A DNA stretch of 4,265 nt from a virus. Taxonomy: Duplodnaviria > Heunggongvirae > Uroviricota > Caudoviricetes. The stretch lies in IMG/VR virus record IMGVR_UViG_2534681999_000005; one strand, 5' to 3'. The position numbers and the translations under genes are program-made. Below, piece after piece: positions 1 through 4,265 of this stretch. The notes under the pieces are model-generated. The model was not told where the DNA came from. It was given only the letters and a program-made list of their open reading frames with translations, and ran no database searches. The stretch's first letter is position 1, and each line of letters begins with the position of its first letter.

Positions 1-599
1 GGAACGTGAAAACGGATTTATCAGCAACGGAAACGGCCTGGAAGCTGTGGGAACTTATGGGGGAGGTGTATTCGAACCGCTGGACCCAGAAGAACGGGGC
101 TGCGCCGTCGAAGCTCTGGATTGCTCAGATTGGCGCGATGACTGAACAGCAAATCCGGCAGGTCTGCCGTCAGTGCATGGACCGCTGCCGGGCGGGTGAA
201 ACGTGGCCTCCGGATCTGGCTGAGTTTGTGGCGTTGATTTCGGAGAGCGGGGCAAATCCATTTGGCCTGACGGTGGATGCCGTGATGGAGGAGTACCGTC
301 GCTGGAGGAATGAATCCTGGCGGTACGACGGGAGTGATAAATACCCGTGGCCACAGCCGGTGCTGTACCACATTTGCCTCGAGATGCGTGACAGAGGGAT
401 TGAGCGGCAGATGACGGAAGGTGAGTTAAAACGACTTGCAGAACGGCAACTGACGAAATGGGCAAAGCAAGTTGGTAACGGGATGAGTATTCCCCCGATC
501 CGGAGACAACTCGCATCGCCGAAGTGCCCGCAAGGGCCAACGCCAATTGAATTACTGAAACAGGAATACGAGCGCCGGAAGGCGGCTGGTTTTGTTTGA
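1..599 (+). CDS. Replication protein P-like (lambda P family helicase loader), 3' portion; probably 5'-truncated by the window edge
   Basis: Seen: the ORF is open to base 3 in frame, with the first in-window start a GTG at 6, and the TGA stop at 597-599. From memory: the C-terminal half (YPW...TEGELKRLAERQL...GNGMSIPPIRRQLASP) matches the pattern of lambda P (YPW...TDAELRRKAADEL...NRGEAIPEPVKQLP). Lambda P has roughly 35-40 more N-terminal residues, hence the likely truncation. Not verified by search. Confidence 0.7.
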   Translation, partial: NVKTDLSATETAWKLWELMGEVYSNRWTQKNGAAPSKLWIAQIGAMTEQQIRQVCRQCMDRCRAGETWPPDLAEFVALISESGANPFGLTVDAVMEEYRRWRNESWRYDGSDKYPWPQPVLYHICLEMRDRGIERQMTEGELKRLAERQLTKWAKQVGNGMSIPPIRRQLASPKCPQGPTPIELLKQEYERRKAAGFV

Positions 600-632
600 A
601 TCTGAGAAACGATTTTGTCGGAGGAAATTTTA

Positions 633-1349
633 ATGGAAACCGTATCTGACGCACTGAAAGCACTGAAAAGAGCCTCTTCACATGTGGTGGCAGCTCGCCT
701 TGGAATTAGTCGTGAAGAGGCTGTCAACGAACTGTGGAAACTGAAACGCCGTGGAGAAGCGGATAACAAGGGGGCGATATGGTGGCTGACTCAGGCTGGT
801 GAAAGTGAACCGGTGTCACCGGTACCGAAAGTGACGGCGCAAATGCTGACAGAGGCGATTGAACAACATGGCCCACAAACGGCGGATGAACTGGCATTGA
901 TGTTCGGAATTACCTCCCGCCGGGCGAATTCATCGCTGGCAATGGCAATCAGCAAAGGGTGTCTGATTCGCGTGAATCAGGATGGTAAATTTCGTTACTG
1001 CATACCGGGCGTTGATTTACCGGCAGAGCCGAAAGCAGCATCCGTAGCTGAAACGGAGGGTAAAGCCCTTCCTCAGCCAGCTGGTGTTGCGTTACCAGTC
1101 CAGGAAACGGCTGCACAGGAAGAAATTAAAACAGAAGCGGTGGAGGACATTGTGAAGTTGCAGCAATCGTTCACTGAAGCGAAAGCAGATGACCTGATTC
1201 TACCATCGCTGCATGTGGCTAACCGCGAGCTGCGCCGGGCGAAAAGTAATGTTCAGAAGTGGGAGCGAGTCTGTGCTGCGCTACGGGAACTGAACAAACA
1301 CAGGGATATTCTCCGGGATATTACCGCCACCAGAGAGCAGCAGCGGTGA
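633..1349 (+). CDS. Hypothetical prophage protein (238 aa) with two winged-helix-like segments and an acidic coiled-coil-like C-terminal half
   Basis: Seen: ATG at 633 preceded by GGAGG (620-624) at 8-nt spacing; the TTG at 615 from the ORF track has no SD. TGA stop at 1347-1349. HTH-like segments: [24 protein letters not shown] and [32 protein letters not shown]. Family not recognised with certainty. Confidence 0.6.
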
Positions 1350-1663
1350 GTGGCTGGAAGAAGTGGCGCTGGGCTGAAATCCTGATACTCCGGCAGTGTG
1401 CGGGAACGATGAGAGTCGAAAGCATCGGTTATCTGATTGGCCGTAGTGAGTCAGCCGTCAGGACGAAAGCGCGGGAACTGGGTATCAGCATGATGTTACG
1501 GGGTGATTATCACCAGTCAGCCAAATGTTCACAGCGTGATATTGAGCTGGCGTGGCAACTGCATCAGCGTGGTGTACCCCGACGGGAAATTGCCGAAAAG
1601 TTTGGGATGAAGTTGGGCGCAGTGAATAACTACGTTTATTTCGACAGGAGGGTTCAGGAGTGA
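1346..1663 (+). CDS. Small DNA-binding protein (105 aa) with two tandem GcrA-like HTH repeats
   Basis: Seen: GTG start at 1346 overlaps the upstream TGA stop (GTGA), suggesting translational coupling. The ORF-track ATG at 1259 would overlap the upstream gene by 91 nt and has no SD; the ATG at 1409 would cut off the first repeat. Repeats: W-x2-W-x2-E...[17 protein letters not shown] and [27 protein letters not shown], resembling the GcrA N-terminal HTH pattern (from memory). Start is uncertain between 1346 and 1409. Confidence 0.5.
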
Positions 1664-1962
1664 GGGTGAGGGTTTATATCGCCGGTCCGATGACGGGATA
1701 TGAAAATTTTAACCGCGAGGCATTTCACAAAACGGAAGAGGTGCTGAAACGGGAAGGGCATACCGTTTTAAACCCGGCAGTACTTCCGGACGGGCTGACT
1801 CAGCCACACTACATGGATATTTGCATGGCAATGCTCCGTTGCGTGGATGCGGTTTACATGCTGAAAGGCTGGCAGCAGTCGGCAGGTGCAGGGGCTGAGC
1901 TGGCACTGGAGGAGAAACCGGGCCATGCGGTGATTTTTCAGGAGGTGGGCAGTGAATATTGA
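1660..1962 (+). CDS. DUF4406-like protein (nucleoside 2-deoxyribosyltransferase-like fold), 100 aa
   Basis: Seen: GTG at 1660 overlaps the upstream TGA (GTGA), with AGGAGG-like sequence 8-14 nt upstream. The N-terminal motif VYIAGPMTGY, followed by NPA...and GW.QS.GA..E, matches what I recall of the DUF4406 / N-deoxyribosyltransferase-like family common in enterobacterial prophages. Not search-verified. Confidence 0.65.
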   Translation: MRVRVYIAGPMTGYENFNREAFHKTEEVLKREGHTVLNPAVLPDGLTQPHYMDICMAMLRCVDAVYMLKGWQQSAGAGAELALEEKPGHAVIFQEVGSEY

Positions 1963-2269
1963 CCCGGCGATAACGATTGATATGGCCCTGAACGCCGGCC
2001 TGGCACTTCTTGGTTATTTCTACATTATGTTCTGCAGCGGACGATGGCTGTCACTGTTGTTCATGAAAAAATGGAATAAACGCCGTAAGCAGGAGCAACG
2101 CCAGAAGGCAATGGATGCATTTTTCGAAGCCTTCGGAATTGACGGCATGGAACCAGGGGATCCAGCTCGCGCAATCAGCAGAGGGGGTGTAGTAATCCTT
2201 GTATATCGGAGTGAAGAGAAAAATGACGATCACAAAACAACGTGTAGAAGAAATCATATCCCGCATTGA
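1952..2269 (+). CDS. Small membrane-anchored protein (105 aa): one hydrophobic helix followed by a basic/charged region
   Basis: Seen: GTG at 1952 with GGAGG (1941-1945) 6 nt upstream; it overlaps the preceding gene's end by 11 nt. Hydrophobic segment ALNAGLALLGYFYIMFCSGRWLSLLF, then KKWNKRRKQEQRQK. The 3' end overlaps the next gene by about 47 nt and that tail looks low-quality, so the gene's reality and extent are uncertain. An alternative start is the ATG at 1982. Confidence 0.4.
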   Translation: MNIDPAITIDMALNAGLALLGYFYIMFCSGRWLSLLFMKKWNKRRKQEQRQKAMDAFFEAFGIDGMEPGDPARAISRGGVVILVYRSEEKNDDHKTTCRRNHIPH

Positions 2270-2540
2270 AATGTATGGACATGGTGCAGGGTATATCGCA
2301 GACGAGGTTAATGATCTGGCTATACTGGCGCTGAATTTATCAAATATCGCGAACCTGAAGCGATACGAGCTTGATATGGGAGGTTGCGACTCGTGCGGTC
2401 AGGATTGTGGCGCTGATATGACTGAAGATCCTGATGGTGATTATGTCCTGTTTGATGACGTGGTTAAGTTGTTTGAATTTGATACAACCACTCAAAAGTT
2501 AGAAATCCCGGCAAAGGAGGCAGCCAGTGGGCAAGATTGA
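2223..2540 (+). CDS. Hypothetical acidic protein (105 aa) with a Cys cluster (CDSCGQDCG)
   Basis: Seen: ATG at 2223 with GGAG/GAAGAG purine-rich sequence upstream; TGA stop at 2538-2540. In-frame alternatives are TTG 2199, GTG 2211 and ATG 2271. 2223 is preferred because the resulting N-terminus (MTITKQR...YGHG) parallels the N-terminus of the 185-aa protein at 3160. Confidence 0.5.
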   Translation: MTITKQRVEEIISRIEMYGHGAGYIADEVNDLAILALNLSNIANLKRYELDMGGCDSCGQDCGADMTEDPDGDYVLFDDVVKLFEFDTTTQKLEIPAKEAASGQD

Positions 2541-2964
2541 CTATCAGGCACTGCGTGAGGCAGCACAAAACTATCAATCGACGCTGGCGTGGTATCAGGC
2601 TACCCCGGACAGCCCAAATGCTGAACGGGATTGTGATGCGGCTCTTGCTGCGTTTAAGCGTCACATCCGTCATCGGGAAGCGGATATTATCGCTGATTTG
2701 CTGGATGGACTGGAAGAAGCAAAATCACAACTCAACGAGCAGCGTGAGTATTACGAAGGCGTTATCTCTGATGGGAGCAAGCGTATTGCTGAACTGGAAG
2801 CGCGGGAAGTTCAATTACCGACTCGCTACGACCTTCGATATGGACACCCGATAAATGCAGATGAGCGACATGTCATGATACCTAAAGAAAATGGCAGTTG
2901 GCTTTACCTGATTGACCTAGAACACGCATTACGCGTCGCTGGCATTCGCATCAAAGGAGAGTGA
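2527..2964 (+). CDS. Ead/Ea22-like prophage protein (145 aa)
   Basis: Seen: GTG at 2527 preceded by AAGGAGG (2514-2520) at 6-nt spacing; it overlaps the upstream gene by 14 nt. From memory: N-terminal IDYQALREAA and the C-terminal block SQLNEQREYYEGVISDGSKRIAELE...AGIRIKGE closely match phage lambda Ea22 (KSKLNEQREYYEGVISDGSKRIAKLE...AGIRIKGE). Confidence 0.75.
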   Translation: MGKIDYQALREAAQNYQSTLAWYQATPDSPNAERDCDAALAAFKRHIRHREADIIADLLDGLEEAKSQLNEQREYYEGVISDGSKRIAELEAREVQLPTRYDLRYGHPINADERHVMIPKENGSWLYLIDLEHALRVAGIRIKGE

Positions 2965-2965
2965 G

Positions 2966-3157
2966 ATGAACGGACAAATATCAATTGTTCGACCAGGAGC
3001 ATGTGACGATCGCGAAATACGAATGATTATTCGTCTGGCGATGGGGAAAACAATAACTGCTCTCATTACTCCAGAAAATCTCGCATTAGCATTAACAGGA
3101 AAGTCAGACATGCCAGTAGAGCTAAAGCTGCGAAATGTTGAGATTAAGGTGAAATAG
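2966..3157 (+). CDS. Hypothetical small protein (63 aa)
   Basis: Seen: ATG at 2966, one nt after the upstream TGA, with GGAGAG 6 nt upstream; TAG stop at 3155-3157. No recognisable family. Confidence 0.5.
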   Translation: MNGQISIVRPGACDDREIRMIIRLAMGKTITALITPENLALALTGKSDMPVELKLRNVEIKVK

Positions 3158-3159
3158 CT

Positions 3160-3717
3160 ATGACCACTATTACCAAAGATCGACTGCTGACAATCCAGCA
3201 TTGGCGCGAAACATACGGACCGGGTAGCAACGTTGTGCTTCCAGCAGAAGAAGCGGAAGAGCTGGCACGGATTGCGCTGGCATCACTGGCAGCAGTATCG
3301 GATGAACGAGCAGCCTATGAATTATTTATGGAGAAGCGTTTCGGAGAATCTGTAGATCGCCGCAGAGCAAAAAATGGCGATAGAGATTACATGGTATGGG
3401 ATATGGCGCTTGGCTGGATTATCTGGTGTCACCGCGCCGCCATGCTTCAGGCTGGAAACTTTCGGGAAAATAAGGGTTCGTCAACCAATAATTTTCGGAT
3501 AATCTCGGAAACGTCAACCAACTCTCCGGCAATCCCTGATGAGGTGTTGTCCGCAATCCTGAAGGTCGCCAGGCTTCGTGCAGATTTCGATGCTTCTGAA
3601 GTGGACAGGCGAGGTATCGGTAGTTGTCTGGATGAGGCCGAGCAAGAACTTATCGTTACCATTAACGAATACGCCAGTCAGATCGCAGTAGAAGCGACAC
3701 AGGGGGAGAACCAATGA
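3160..3717 (+). CDS. Hypothetical prophage protein (185 aa)
   Basis: Seen: ATG at 3160 with AGGTG (3147-3151) 8 nt upstream; TGA stop at 3715-3717. The N-terminus MTTITKDRLLTIQHWRETYGPG resembles that of the 2223 gene. No family recognised. Confidence 0.6.
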   Translation: MTTITKDRLLTIQHWRETYGPGSNVVLPAEEAEELARIALASLAAVSDERAAYELFMEKRFGESVDRRRAKNGDRDYMVWDMALGWIIWCHRAAMLQAGNFRENKGSSTNNFRIISETSTNSPAIPDEVLSAILKVARLRADFDASEVDRRGIGSCLDEAEQELIVTINEYASQIAVEATQGENQ

Positions 3718-3791
3718 GCCGGCCAGATGCATTTGCAGGCGTTGCTATAGCTATTGCTTTTCTAGTATATGTTATTTGTCGGTGGGGGTAA
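3714..3791 (+). CDS. Tiny hydrophobic peptide ORF (25 aa: MSRPDAFAGVAIAIAFLVYVICRWG), putative small membrane protein
   Basis: Seen: ATG at 3714 overlaps the upstream TGA (ATGA); strong SD AGGGGGAG (3701-3708) about 5 nt upstream; TAA stop at 3789-3791. The peptide is almost entirely hydrophobic. Translated by hand; below the ORF-track length cutoff. Confidence 0.35.
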   Translation: MSRPDAFAGVAIAIAFLVYVICRWG

Positions 3792-3826
3792 AAACGTTCG
3801 CCGGGATTCACACCAAGGGAGGGAAT

Positions 3827-3931
3827 ATGTCGGATGATATTTCACTGGTAATGGAAGGCGCTCTGGCTGTTATTGCTGTTGTGGGTGTTTACTGCCTGGT
3901 TGTGTTTTTGATGGAGCGCCTGGGGAACTGA
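3827..3931 (+). CDS. Tiny single-TM peptide ORF (34 aa: MSDDISLVMEGALAVIAVVGVYCLVVFLMERLGN)
   Basis: Seen: ATG at 3827 preceded by AAGGGAGGG (3816-3824) with about 2-5 nt spacing depending on where the SD core is placed; TGA stop at 3929-3931. Acidic N-terminus, about 20-residue hydrophobic core, charged C-terminus. Translated by hand. Confidence 0.4.
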   Translation: MSDDISLVMEGALAVIAVVGVYCLVVFLMERLGN

Positions 3932-3938
3932 ATTCATT

Positions 3939-3961
3939 CCGTATGGGAATTCCCATATCGG
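3939..3961. repeat. Imperfect 23-bp palindrome centred on the perfect 10-bp palindrome GGGAATTCCC (3945-3954); candidate hairpin or protein-binding site
   Basis: Seen: CCGTATGGGAATTCCCATATCGG is the reverse complement of itself apart from one indel. It lies 8 nt after the stop of the 34-aa ORF. No downstream U-tract, so it is not a canonical intrinsic terminator. Confidence 0.4.
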
Positions 3962-3970
3962 GCAAAACGG

Positions 3971-3999
3971 TTTGCTGTAAAGCGAGAGTTAAGTAGAAT
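3971..3999 (+). promoter_or_regulatory. Candidate sigma70 promoter for the hok/mok transcript
   Basis: Seen: -35-like TTTGCT (3971-3976), 17-bp spacer, -10-like TAGAAT (3994-3999). Predicted transcript start near 4006, about 110 nt upstream of the mok-like ATG. Match by eye only. Confidence 0.3.
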
Positions 4000-4017
4000 T
4001 GCTGCGGGTGCTTGAGG

Positions 4018-4053
4018 CTGTCTGCCTCGGGCATGCCACCGTAAGGCAGACAG
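4018..4053 (+). other. Stem-loop in the hok leader: perfect 10-bp stem with a 16-nt loop
   Basis: Seen: CTGTCTGCCT (4018-4027) is the exact reverse complement of AGGCAGACAG (4044-4053). No U-tract follows on either strand, so this is a structural RNA element rather than a terminator. Confidence 0.45.
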
Positions 4054-4059
4054 AGAAAA

Positions 4060-4126
4060 GCCCCAGTTAACATTACGCGTCCTGCAAGACGCTTAACATT
4101 AATCTGAGGCCCAATCTATGCTTCAC
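4060..4126 (-). ncRNA. sok: Candidate Sok-like antisense RNA, antitoxin of the type I hok system (boundaries approximate)
   Basis: Inference from established hok/sok organisation: Sok is a roughly 60-70 nt antisense RNA covering the mok translation-initiation region. A promoter-like element on the minus strand would start transcription near 4125, opposite the mok-like ATG at 4118. No canonical terminator was identified, so the 3' end is a guess. Confidence 0.3.
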
Positions 4127-4265
4127 AAACGTAGGTTAGCCTCTTACGCGCCGAAAGGCAAGGAGAAGCAGGCTATGAAGCAGCAAAAGGCGATGTTAAT
4201 CGCCCTGATCGTCATCTGTTTAACCGTCATAGTGACGGCACTGGTAACGAGGAAAGACCTCTGCG
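4118..4265 (+). CDS. mok: mok-like in-frame upstream start giving a 19-codon N-terminal extension of hok (MLHKRRLASYAPKGKEKQA-MKQQK...); partial
   Basis: Seen: ATG at 4118 is in frame with the hok ATG at 4175, with no intervening stop, and GAGG lies 8 nt upstream. From memory: this resembles the in-frame MokC extension of chromosomal hokC (ML...KVKEKRAMKQHK). Confidence 0.4.
   Translation, partial: MLHKRRLASYAPKGKEKQAMKQQKAMLIALIVICLTVIVTALVTRKDLC
4133..4161 (-). promoter_or_regulatory. Candidate sigma70 promoter for the Sok-like antisense RNA
   Basis: Seen on the minus strand: -35-like TTGCCT (complement of 4156-4161), 17-bp spacer, -10-like TAACCT (complement of 4133-4138). The most conserved -10 positions (TA...T) are present. 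Confidence 0.3.
4175..4265 (+). CDS. hok: Hok/Gef-family type I toxin (HokD/RelF- or HokC-like), first 30 codons; 3'-truncated by the window edge
   Basis: Seen: ATG at 4175 with AAGGAG (4160-4165) 9 nt upstream. Translation MKQQKAMLIALIVICLTVIVTALVTRKDLC matches, from memory, the N-terminus of E. coli HokD/RelF and is very close to HokC/Gef (MKQHKAMIVALIVICITAVVAALVTRKDLC). The ORF runs off the window. Confidence 0.85.
   Translation, partial: MKQQKAMLIALIVICLTVIVTALVTRKDLC

Follow-up and report, generated by a model that had tools for sequence, protein, structure and literature searches.

The position of ea22 relative to the replication genes

In bacteriophage lambda, P is transcribed rightward, whereas ea22 belongs to the leftward pL operon and is located between exo and xis. 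This contrast was drawn in an earlier, sequence-only reading of the DNA studied here and agrees with the lambda reference. In the stretch analysed (4,265 nt of IMG/VR record IMGVR_UViG_2534681999_000005; hereafter, the window), an Ea22-like gene follows a P-like gene on the replication strand, which raises the question of whether two modules were fused by recombination in this particular genome or whether such an order is regular. With a probability of about 0.88, we consider the window to be part of the early rightward (pR-equivalent) operon of an E. coli prophage of the Rac-type lambdoid group, in which this gene order is ordinary. The order differs from that of lambda, yet it is already annotated.

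Gene content of the window

The features of the window are listed in Table 1. All nine ORFs from position 3 to 3717 are located on the + strand and are separated, in order from the junction of the P-like gene with the DUF1627 gene onward, by +33, -4, -4, -11, -47, -14, +1 and +2 nt. The P-like and Ea22-like genes are thus connected on one strand by genes which overlap or abut, as had been proposed, and in being co-directional and contiguous they form a non-lambda arrangement. NCBIfam gave no useful matches for any of the ten proteins of the window.

Table 1. Annotated features of the window and the matches on which the assignments are based
Feature	Position	Strand	Matches
DnaT-like/O-like initiator ORF, 3' tail	1..145	+ (frame 2)	RefSeq WP_001262323.1 (end)
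P-like helicase loader, 3' part (~198 codons)	1..599 (translated 3-599, frame 3)	+	PF06992; phrog_109
DUF1627 (YdaW-like) gene	633..1349	+	PF07789, E 6.8e-82; WP_000451012.1
Small helix-turn-helix (HTH) gene	1346..1663	+	phrog_323, E 1.8e-24; weak HTH Pfam matches
DUF4406 gene (nucleoside 2-deoxyribosyltransferase-like)	1660..1962	+	PF14359, E 2e-33; phrog_355, E 4e-43
DUF4752 gene, cassette half 1	1952..2269	+	PF15944, E 7.5e-39
Hypothetical 105-aa gene (hyp105), cassette half 2	2223..2540	+	phrog_3126, E 3.3e-66; WP_000156547.1
Ead/Ea22-family gene, 145 aa	2527..2964	+	PF13935; phrog_250; lambda Ea22 (BLASTP)
63-aa hypothetical gene	2966..3157	+	phrog_1222, E 1e-40; WP_001014296.1
185-aa gene	3160..3717	+	PHROG matches; WP_032167855.1
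hok/sok type I toxin-antitoxin locus	4006..4265	+	Rfam RF01794 (sok), 116 bits, E 6e-27; RefSeq hokD

The P-like gene has an open frame already at base 1 of the window, and its true start lies upstream; in the genome of SS52 (NZ_CP010304) the frame is open from an ATG located 66 nt upstream of window base 3. The translation of 3-599 matches the Pfam family Phage_lambda_P (E 1.3e-16, 61.2 bits against a cut-off of 26) as well as PHROG 109, 'P-like helicase loader' (E 4.3e-63, residues 4-197), and shares 26% amino acid sequence identity with lambda P over 113 aa (BLASTP, E 6e-7). The Pfam/PHROG profile search yielded no match of this product to the O and DnaC families. Hence, the earlier identification of a P-like C-terminus is borne out. 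Judging from this homology, the product is predicted to bind host DnaB and to deliver it to the O-ori complex.

Ea22-like protein

The product of 2527-2964 exhibits similarity to the Pfam family Ead_Ea22 (E 2.2e-13, 51.4 bits against a cut-off of 27) and to phrog_250 (E 2.5e-44), and shares 41% identity with lambda Ea22 over 118 aa (BLASTP, E 3e-17); its designation as Ea22-like is therefore well founded. Common to both proteins are the N-terminal I-x-x-QALREAA motif and the C-terminal AGIRIKGE, and 26 of the 29 residues across the AKS(Q/K)LNEQREYYEGVISDGSKRIA(E/K)LE stretch are identical. This near-identical central stretch is also apparent at the nucleotide level, where bases 2722-2800 (79 nt) are at least 88% identical to lambda ea22.

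[quoted passage not shown] The window protein appears to consist of the N-terminal motif, a long central helix and a short divergent C-terminal domain. The AF2 single-sequence model shows helices at residues 6-25 and 32-92 (block-mean pLDDT 76-92), while the C-terminal 50 residues remain below pLDDT 65. At 145 aa, compared with 182 aa in lambda, the protein is devoid of most of the C-terminal domain that NMR has resolved in lambda Ea22 (residues 102-182): the BLASTP alignment stops at window residue 108, beyond which only the last 8 residues, AGIRIKGE, are common. In agreement with this, a PDB sequence search with the protein gave no match at E <= 0.1, the solved lambda domain included.

Lambda Ea22 is a prolysogenic protein of tetrameric coiled-coil architecture (PMC7093339, PMC10834534), and the prolysogenic effect has been demonstrated for lambda and Stx phages only (PMC7093339). 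From its homology with Ea22 of lambda and of Stx phages, the window protein would most likely act as a coiled-coil oligomer biasing the lysis-lysogeny decision towards lysogeny; however, since the C-terminal domains differ, the transfer of function from lambda Ea22 is uncertain.

Gene order in related prophages

The window matches 278 complete E. coli genomes with 99% identity over 95-96% of its length, a count which overstates independent conservation because most of these genomes belong to one clonal lineage (O157:H7). The closest prophage, near-identical to the window, resides beside potC in O157:H7 and is of the Sakai Sp6 type, Sp6 being the prophage at potC/potB (PMC8190617). In the Sp6-type prophage of SS52 (1.484-1.53 Mb) the gene order is equal to that of the window and the nucleotide identity to window 1-3532 amounts to 99.8%; the two differ in 3533-3689, the C-terminal part of the 185-aa ORF, whose SS52 homologue is annotated as DUF551, and the hok region is 92% identical. 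The locus starts beside potD-potC with int-xis-...-racR, followed by ydaS-ydaT-O-like-P-DUF1627-...-Ea22-like-...-hokD-DUF968-RusA-...-holin-terminase, and its RefSeq annotation names replication protein P, DUF1627, DUF4406, DUF4752, ead/Ea22-like, DUF551 and hokD.

The same module order, ydaU-P-like (ydaV)-ydaW-lygF-rac19-ead-...-hok, is found in Rac-SA53 (KU052037), where ydaW, the counterpart of the DUF1627 gene, likewise comes next after the P-like gene. The nucleotide identity to the window is 83-86% over P, DUF1627 and DUF4406 and 93% over hok/sok. Rac-SA53, however, carries lygF in place of the HTH gene, is devoid of the DUF4752-hyp105 cassette and encodes an Ead protein which has only the N-terminal 15 residues in common with the Ea22-like protein of the window. 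SS52, Rac-SA53 and the marker survey described below all match the Rac-type early-right layout: racR, then ydaS-ydaT-ydaU (O-like)-P-like-ydaW (DUF1627), an accessory cluster, hok, DUF968, rusA and Q.

The loci were surveyed from two single-protein queries, the Ea22-like protein of the window and lambda Ea22. The former query gave 80 IMG/VR viral loci with an Ea22 orthologue at least 94% identical in amino acid sequence, that is, close orthologues of the window protein only. The orthologue was placed on the pR side (downstream of replication genes and/or upstream of hok-DUF968-rusA-Q) in 72 loci and on the int side in two; six loci, in which the Ea22 strand carried neither a replication marker nor a nin-side or int-side one, were unclassified. 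DUF4406 was located upstream of the orthologue in all 80 loci and the P-like gene in 39, while hok was found downstream in 45 and DUF968/rusA/Q in 46. The 72 pR-side contigs carry several different replication modules, and only 13 of the 80 loci show the full nine-gene order with DUF4752-hyp105. In the case of lambda Ea22, 57 of 80 relatives, plus 8 weak cases, were in the gam-bet-exo-Ea22-xis-int context, with 11 on the pR side. Phage vB_EcoS-689R5 shows the order O-LygF-...-Ea22 (two copies)-...-hok-YdfU-RusA-Q.

Close relatives thus carry the P-to-Ea22 order as a standard conserved arrangement, occurring in the 278 genomes, in Rac-SA53 and in 72 of the 80 contigs. Of the two earlier suggestions, a non-lambda arrangement or a recombinational fusion of modules, the second thus fails as far as a fusion special to the window is concerned. 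The layout is shown to be old and conserved within the Rac-type group.

Accessory genes and transcription

The genes between P and Ea22 had been regarded as occupying a variable moron-type slot. The variability is evident: the HTH gene (21 of 80 loci) is an allelic alternative to lygF (58 of 80), and the DUF4752-hyp105 cassette, found in 13 of 80, is missing from the other relatives, the joints coinciding with gene boundaries. A moron in the strict sense nevertheless finds no support. Five of the six junctions within 599-2540 have overlapping start and stop codons, the exception being the 33-nt gap between P and DUF1627; no promoter-like site was detected on the + strand in 1-2964, and terminator-like sites in the window (4, versus 3.4 +/- 2.1 in shuffles) are not in excess over chance. 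Neither a promoter nor a terminator of their own can hence be assigned to these genes, which are operon-embedded accessory cassettes, like the ORFs of the lambda nin region, rather than classical, autonomous morons. No convincing terminator was found between the P-like and Ea22-like genes, as had been claimed. The sole + strand terminator-like site near a gene end, a hairpin at 574-590, was rejected as a tR2-like terminator after P, being weak and no stabler than shuffles (folding z-score -0.82).

Because the genes overlap and terminators are absent, the accessory genes are probably co-transcribed from a promoter on the ydaS side. In this phage group the operon comprises, in order, ydaS-ydaT, the DnaT-like initiator, the P-like helicase loader, small, translationally coupled genes (DUF1627, HTH or LygF, DUF4406, with or without DUF4752-hyp105, Ea22-like, further small ORFs and, at the close of the accessory cluster, hok/sok) and DUF968-rusA-Q. 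In the window, the hok CDS starts at 4175 and is cut off by the window end. The Ea22-like gene thus holds the position equivalent to the lambda nin region, and would be expressed in the delayed-early phase on the transcript of the replication genes, not from pL.

The lambda nin region is a set of small, overlapping, dispensable ORFs which are exchanged as cassettes. Extending from ren to ninI between P and Q, it takes the same operon position, between the replication genes and rusA/Q. No homologues of lambda nin genes were found in the window, and ninB and ninG, the only nin markers surveyed, were found in none of the Rac-type loci, which carry rusA and DUF968 instead.

In Rac/Sp6-type prophages the Ea22 family is stably settled in the post-replication (nin-equivalent) slot, and the notion of ea22 as an exo-xis gene is true for lambda and Stx phages, not for the whole family. 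Although of small significance beyond annotation, this is relevant when the expression timing or the prolysogenic role of Ea22 is extrapolated from lambda, and when prophage modules are delimited by gene order in O157 genomes.

Mosaicism

Mosaicism of the locus is real, but of the kind usual in lambdoid phages. The breakpoints of similarity gather at gene boundaries, including those around the HTH gene (1320-1335 and 1650-1664) and around the DUF4752-hyp105 cassette (1935-1949 and 2505-2519), and the gene content from P to Ea22 varies among relatives. Internal repeats of the window are short chance matches only. The left arm of PhiR49_2 (PV340570) contains DUF4752-hyp105-Ea22-hyp63 in the same internal order as the window, with 91.6% nucleotide identity to 1971-2560. 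In that phage the cassette runs in the direction of cI, xis and int and against O, DnaC and the helicase gene, i.e. in a lambda-like position. DUF4752-hyp105 DNA is also found in Stx1 phages, where it lies beyond attP. The PhiR49_2 match, together with the 79-nt patch of lambda ea22, indicates that the Ea22 family has clearly moved between both early arms. The Rac-type layout arose in the way usual for lambdoid phages, by exchange of cassettes whose joints lie at gene boundaries and in short conserved stretches within genes of the Ea22 family.

Alternative readings

According to one alternative, a recent lineage-specific recombination put a pL (exo-xis) segment with ea22 behind P, the junction being peculiar to this genome. 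The int-strand copies in PhiR49_2 and the Stx1 phages and the patch shared with lambda ea22 speak for such an event, but the P-to-Ea22 order is common to diverged relatives (Rac-SA53, at about 85% nucleotide identity, 689R5 and the 72 contigs); the arrangement is therefore old and widespread, and a recent fusion is very improbable. It is also improbable that the genes from P to Ea22 are true morons, i.e. units acquired independently, each with a promoter and terminator of its own, which the repressed prophage expresses to the host's advantage. Their variable content and the presence of hok/sok, an autonomous unit, at the cluster end are compatible with this view, while the overlapping junctions, the lack of + strand promoter-like sites in 1-2964 and the chance-level number of terminator-like sites speak against it, as does the PADLOC search, which matched no known defence family in the window.

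That the Ea22-like assignment is an artefact of a coiled coil or of low complexity, without homology to lambda ea22, seems scarcely credible: the PF13935 match spans residues 3-65 only, a long helix makes up the protein centre and no solved structure was matched, but the specific shared motifs, the phrog_250 score, the BLASTP alignment and the nucleotide match to lambda ea22 refute such a reading. Meanwhile, many similar prophages are present in O157 genomes (matching places per genome: median 2, up to 16), so that an assembly chimera joining two prophages might be suspected. Its chance is negligible, as closed genomes match the window collinearly over 1-3532 and 3690-4265 (99% identity), and two viral contigs (L008 and L015) carry a 185-aa ORF 100% identical to that of the window over the aligned stretch.

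A more far-reaching reading, which we regard as rather unlikely, is that Ea22-family genes serve as portable recombination joints. Three conserved stretches of these genes (the 5' end, the 79-nt patch in the centre and the 3' end with AGIRIKGE-stop) are found in the leftward as well as in the rightward early arms of lambdoid prophages that share a host; through them, neighbouring cassettes could be exchanged between arms and between prophages, and the O157 chromosome could possibly be rearranged. An Ea22 paralogue in the pR arm, expressed along with the replication genes, could also provide these phages with a differently timed prolysogenic input. Separately, the same reading takes in the O/P overlap discussed below.

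Overlap of the O-like and P-like frames

The P-like gene lies directly downstream of an initiator gene: in SS52 and Rac-SA53 a DnaT-like (ydaU) ORF precedes and overlaps it. The CDS of WP_001262323.1 ends at window position 145, and its O-like tail overlaps the P frame out of phase. Minus-strand ORFs antisense to P (up to 208 aa) were rejected as genes, having no Pfam match and being absent from the RefSeq annotation. The overlap of about 209 nt could represent a tail that is truly overprinted, or else a frameshift fusion of O and P. Variable sites among the homologues sit at third codon positions of the P frame, and the O-like tail is weakly constrained, with 19 of 59 amino acids variable versus 8 of 60 in the P frame.

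Gene content and operon structure

All credible genes of the window lie on the plus strand, while the ORFs of the minus strand matched no family and carry no RefSeq annotation. The sequence-only reading, according to which a P-like gene leads into an Ea22-like gene on one strand with no convincing terminator, was correct, as judged from family matches, gene junctions and shuffled controls. The family search with the product of nucleotides 1-599 (ORF from position 3) matched the P family, namely Pfam PF06992 (61.2 bits against a cut-off of 26, E 1.3e-16), the PHROG family phrog_109 "P-like helicase loader" (E 4.3e-63) and lambda P itself (26% identity over 113 aa, E 6e-7).

Genes and loci of the window
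Feature	Position	Strand	Match or remark
P-family helicase loader, 198 aa	3-599	+	open at window start; PF06992, phrog_109
DUF1627	633-1349	+	E 7e-82
Small HTH protein	1346-1663	+	phrog_323
DUF4406	1660-1962	+	E 2e-33
DUF4752	1952-2269	+	E 7.5e-39
Hypothetical, 105 aa (hyp105)	2223-2540	+	phrog_3126
Ead/Ea22-like, 145 aa	2527-2964	+	PF13935, 51.4 bits (cut-off 27), E 2.2e-13
Hypothetical, 63 aa (hyp63)	2966-3157	+	phrog_1222
185-aa ORF	3160-3717	+	PHROG matches only
34-aa membrane peptide	3827-3931	+	no family match
hok/sok locus	4006-4265	+	Rfam RF01794, 116 bits

The consecutive gene junctions between 599 and 3160 measure +33, -4, -4, -11, -47, -14, +1 and +2 nt. Promoter-like and terminator-like sites in the window showed no excess over shuffled controls, and the hairpin at the end of the P gene is not unusually stable. 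Since the junctions overlap and terminators are absent, the genes from P to hok would be transcribed as one delayed-early unit from a ydaS-side promoter, presumably once RacR-type repression is lifted. The proposal that a moron-type slot separates P from the Ea22-like gene holds as far as gene content is concerned, which varies among relatives, but these genes overlap their neighbours and have no promoter or terminator signals of their own; none matched a known defence family. They behave like the ORFs of the lambda nin region, and the sole autonomous unit of the cluster is hok/sok.

The leader of this type I toxin-antitoxin locus is complete (Rfam sok, RF01794), and hokD starts at 4175 and runs past the window end. 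In most relatives the accessory cluster ends with hok/sok. The hydrophobic 34-aa ORF adjoining it on the upstream side (MSDDISLVMEGALAVIAVVGVYCLVVFLMERLGN) is annotated as hypothetical in RefSeq.

Source prophage and gene order among relatives

Matches of ∼99% identity that cover 95-96% of the window occur in 278 complete E. coli genomes, nearly all top matches being O157:H7. Strain SS52 has the region in a lambdoid prophage adjoining potC (Sakai Sp6 is the O157 prophage at potC/potB; PMC8190617). The SS52 prophage begins int-xis-(exo fragment)-racR, followed by ydaS-ydaT-DnaT-like initiator-P-DUF1627-hyp-DUF4406-DUF4752-hyp-ead/Ea22-like, and continues hyp-DUF551-hyp-hokD-hyp-DUF968-RusA-...-holin-lysozyme-terminase. 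It follows that the window comes from a Rac-type prophage and makes up the post-replication part of its early rightward operon; the products of the window are already annotated in RefSeq, and the gene order is known from RefSeq and phage records. Rac-SA53 is arranged ydaU-P-like-ydaW(DUF1627)-lygF-rac19-ead-...-mok/hok, and vB_EcoS-689R5 O-LygF-...-Ea22-...-Ea22-EaA-...-hok-YdfU-RusA-Q.

According to the lambda record, ea22 lies leftward between exo and xis and P is rightward, in agreement with the arms assigned to them earlier. Many CDS product names in that record (J02459) are shifted or wrong, ea22, O and P for example being labelled "xis" or "cII"; lambda genes were identified by coordinates and lengths instead.

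Forty-two marker proteins were placed by tblastn in 80 IMG/VR loci carrying an Ea22-like orthologue at least 94% identical to that of the window. In 72 of them replication genes precede the orthologue and/or hok, DUF968, rusA or Q follow it, in either case on the same strand. Six loci, some of them short contigs, received no class by the marker rule, although all have DUF4406 upstream and most also DUF1627 with lygF or HTH. DUF4406 precedes the orthologue in 80/80 loci, a P-like gene in 39, and an O-like gene without P in 18, so the same accessory cluster is found behind two or more different replication modules. The remaining two loci (L026 1-8812, L058 1-5590) read DUF1627-lygF-DUF4406-Ea22 orthologue-several ORFs-xis-int, all co-directional, which places part of the "post-replication" cluster directly upstream of same-strand xis-int; recombination between arms or between prophages may have produced this layout.

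Eighty relatives of lambda Ea22 were analysed likewise. The layout gam-bet-exo-Ea22-xis-int was clear in 57 and weaker in 8, and 11 lay on the replication/nin side; among these 11, for example, Ea22 is downstream of a P-like gene in L102, L111, L125 and L162 and between cII and rusA-Q in L159. The Ea22 family therefore inhabits both arms, the window's lineage being a stable right-arm resident. Close relatives share the P-to-Ea22 order as their standard arrangement, the outcome that the sequence-only reading had itself named as its refutation; within this phage group the order is nothing out of the ordinary. The suggested non-lambda order or module fusion finds partial support: recombination stands as evolutionary history, but does not amount to a special event in the window.

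Mosaicism

When the window was compared with 167 loci by blastn, the endpoints of the similar stretches clustered at gene boundaries. Those at 1320-1335 and 1650-1664 correspond to an exchange of the HTH gene (21/80 related loci) with lygF (58/80); the joints fall exactly at gene start and stop, indicating clean allelic cassette replacement. Endpoints at 1935-1949 and 2505-2519 flank a DUF4752-hyp105 cassette present in 13/80 loci, those at 2955-2969 mark the Ea22 end, and further clusters occur at 3150-3164 and ∼3960 (hok/sok start).

Cassette DNA of the window is also found on the other arm. Nucleotides 1971-2560 are 91.6% identical to PhiR49_2, where DUF4752-hyp105-Ea22-hyp63 is co-directional with cI, xis and int and opposite to the replication genes. 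Stx1 phage DNA matches 1942-2226 (92%) and 2932-3540 (97%), and in AP005153, the annotated Stx1 phage, the Ea22-like cluster that corresponds to window 1942-2226 and 3964-4265 is located beyond attP. Nucleotides 2722-2800 are at least 88% identical to lambda ea22 and to 37/80 lambda-type loci. The mosaicism is genuine and of the usual lambdoid kind.

The SS52 prophage, elsewhere 99.8% identical, departs from the window at 3533-3689. There the 185-aa ORF has a different C-terminal part; its SS52 homologue is a 195-aa DUF551 protein. The window version occurs in viral contigs L008 and L015; the difference is an intragenic domain swap, as described for Ea22 variants.

The Ea22-like protein

Ea22 of lambda and Stx phages favours lysogeny; the protein is tetrameric and consists of a short N-terminus, a long coiled coil and a C-terminal domain that varies (PMC7093339, PMC10834534). 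The window protein shares 41% identity with lambda Ea22 over 118 aa (E 3e-17), including 26 of 29 residues in the stretch AKS(Q/K)LNEQREYYEGVISDGSKRIA(E/K)LE and a C-terminal AGIRIKGE. The N-terminal motif is present and a long helix (32-92) is confidently predicted; the C-terminal domain is short and different, and does not match the solved lambda domain. The best guess is that the protein would be oligomeric and prolysogenic, as in lambda and Stx phages.

The O-like/P-like overlap

The DnaT-like/O-like ORF (stop at 143-145) shares ∼209 nt with the P-like frame, the two being out of phase (window 1-145; 13937-14145 in the RefSeq-annotated locus L001). Among 11 distinct homologues 17 of 25 variable sites fall at P-frame third positions, and variable amino acids number 8/60 in the P frame against 19/59 in the O frame, which makes P the constrained frame. 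RefSeq probably places the P start (ATG at 138, 153 aa) too far downstream. The match of P to positions 288-482 of phrog_15931 (482 aa) hints that fused O-P ORFs exist. The O-like initiators of loci L003 (6472-7542) and L001 (13102-14145) share the N-terminal ∼165 aa and have unrelated C-terminal halves; in 18 loci no P-like gene comes after the variant without the Rac-type C-terminal half, which fits co-variation between the C-terminus of the initiator and its helicase loader.
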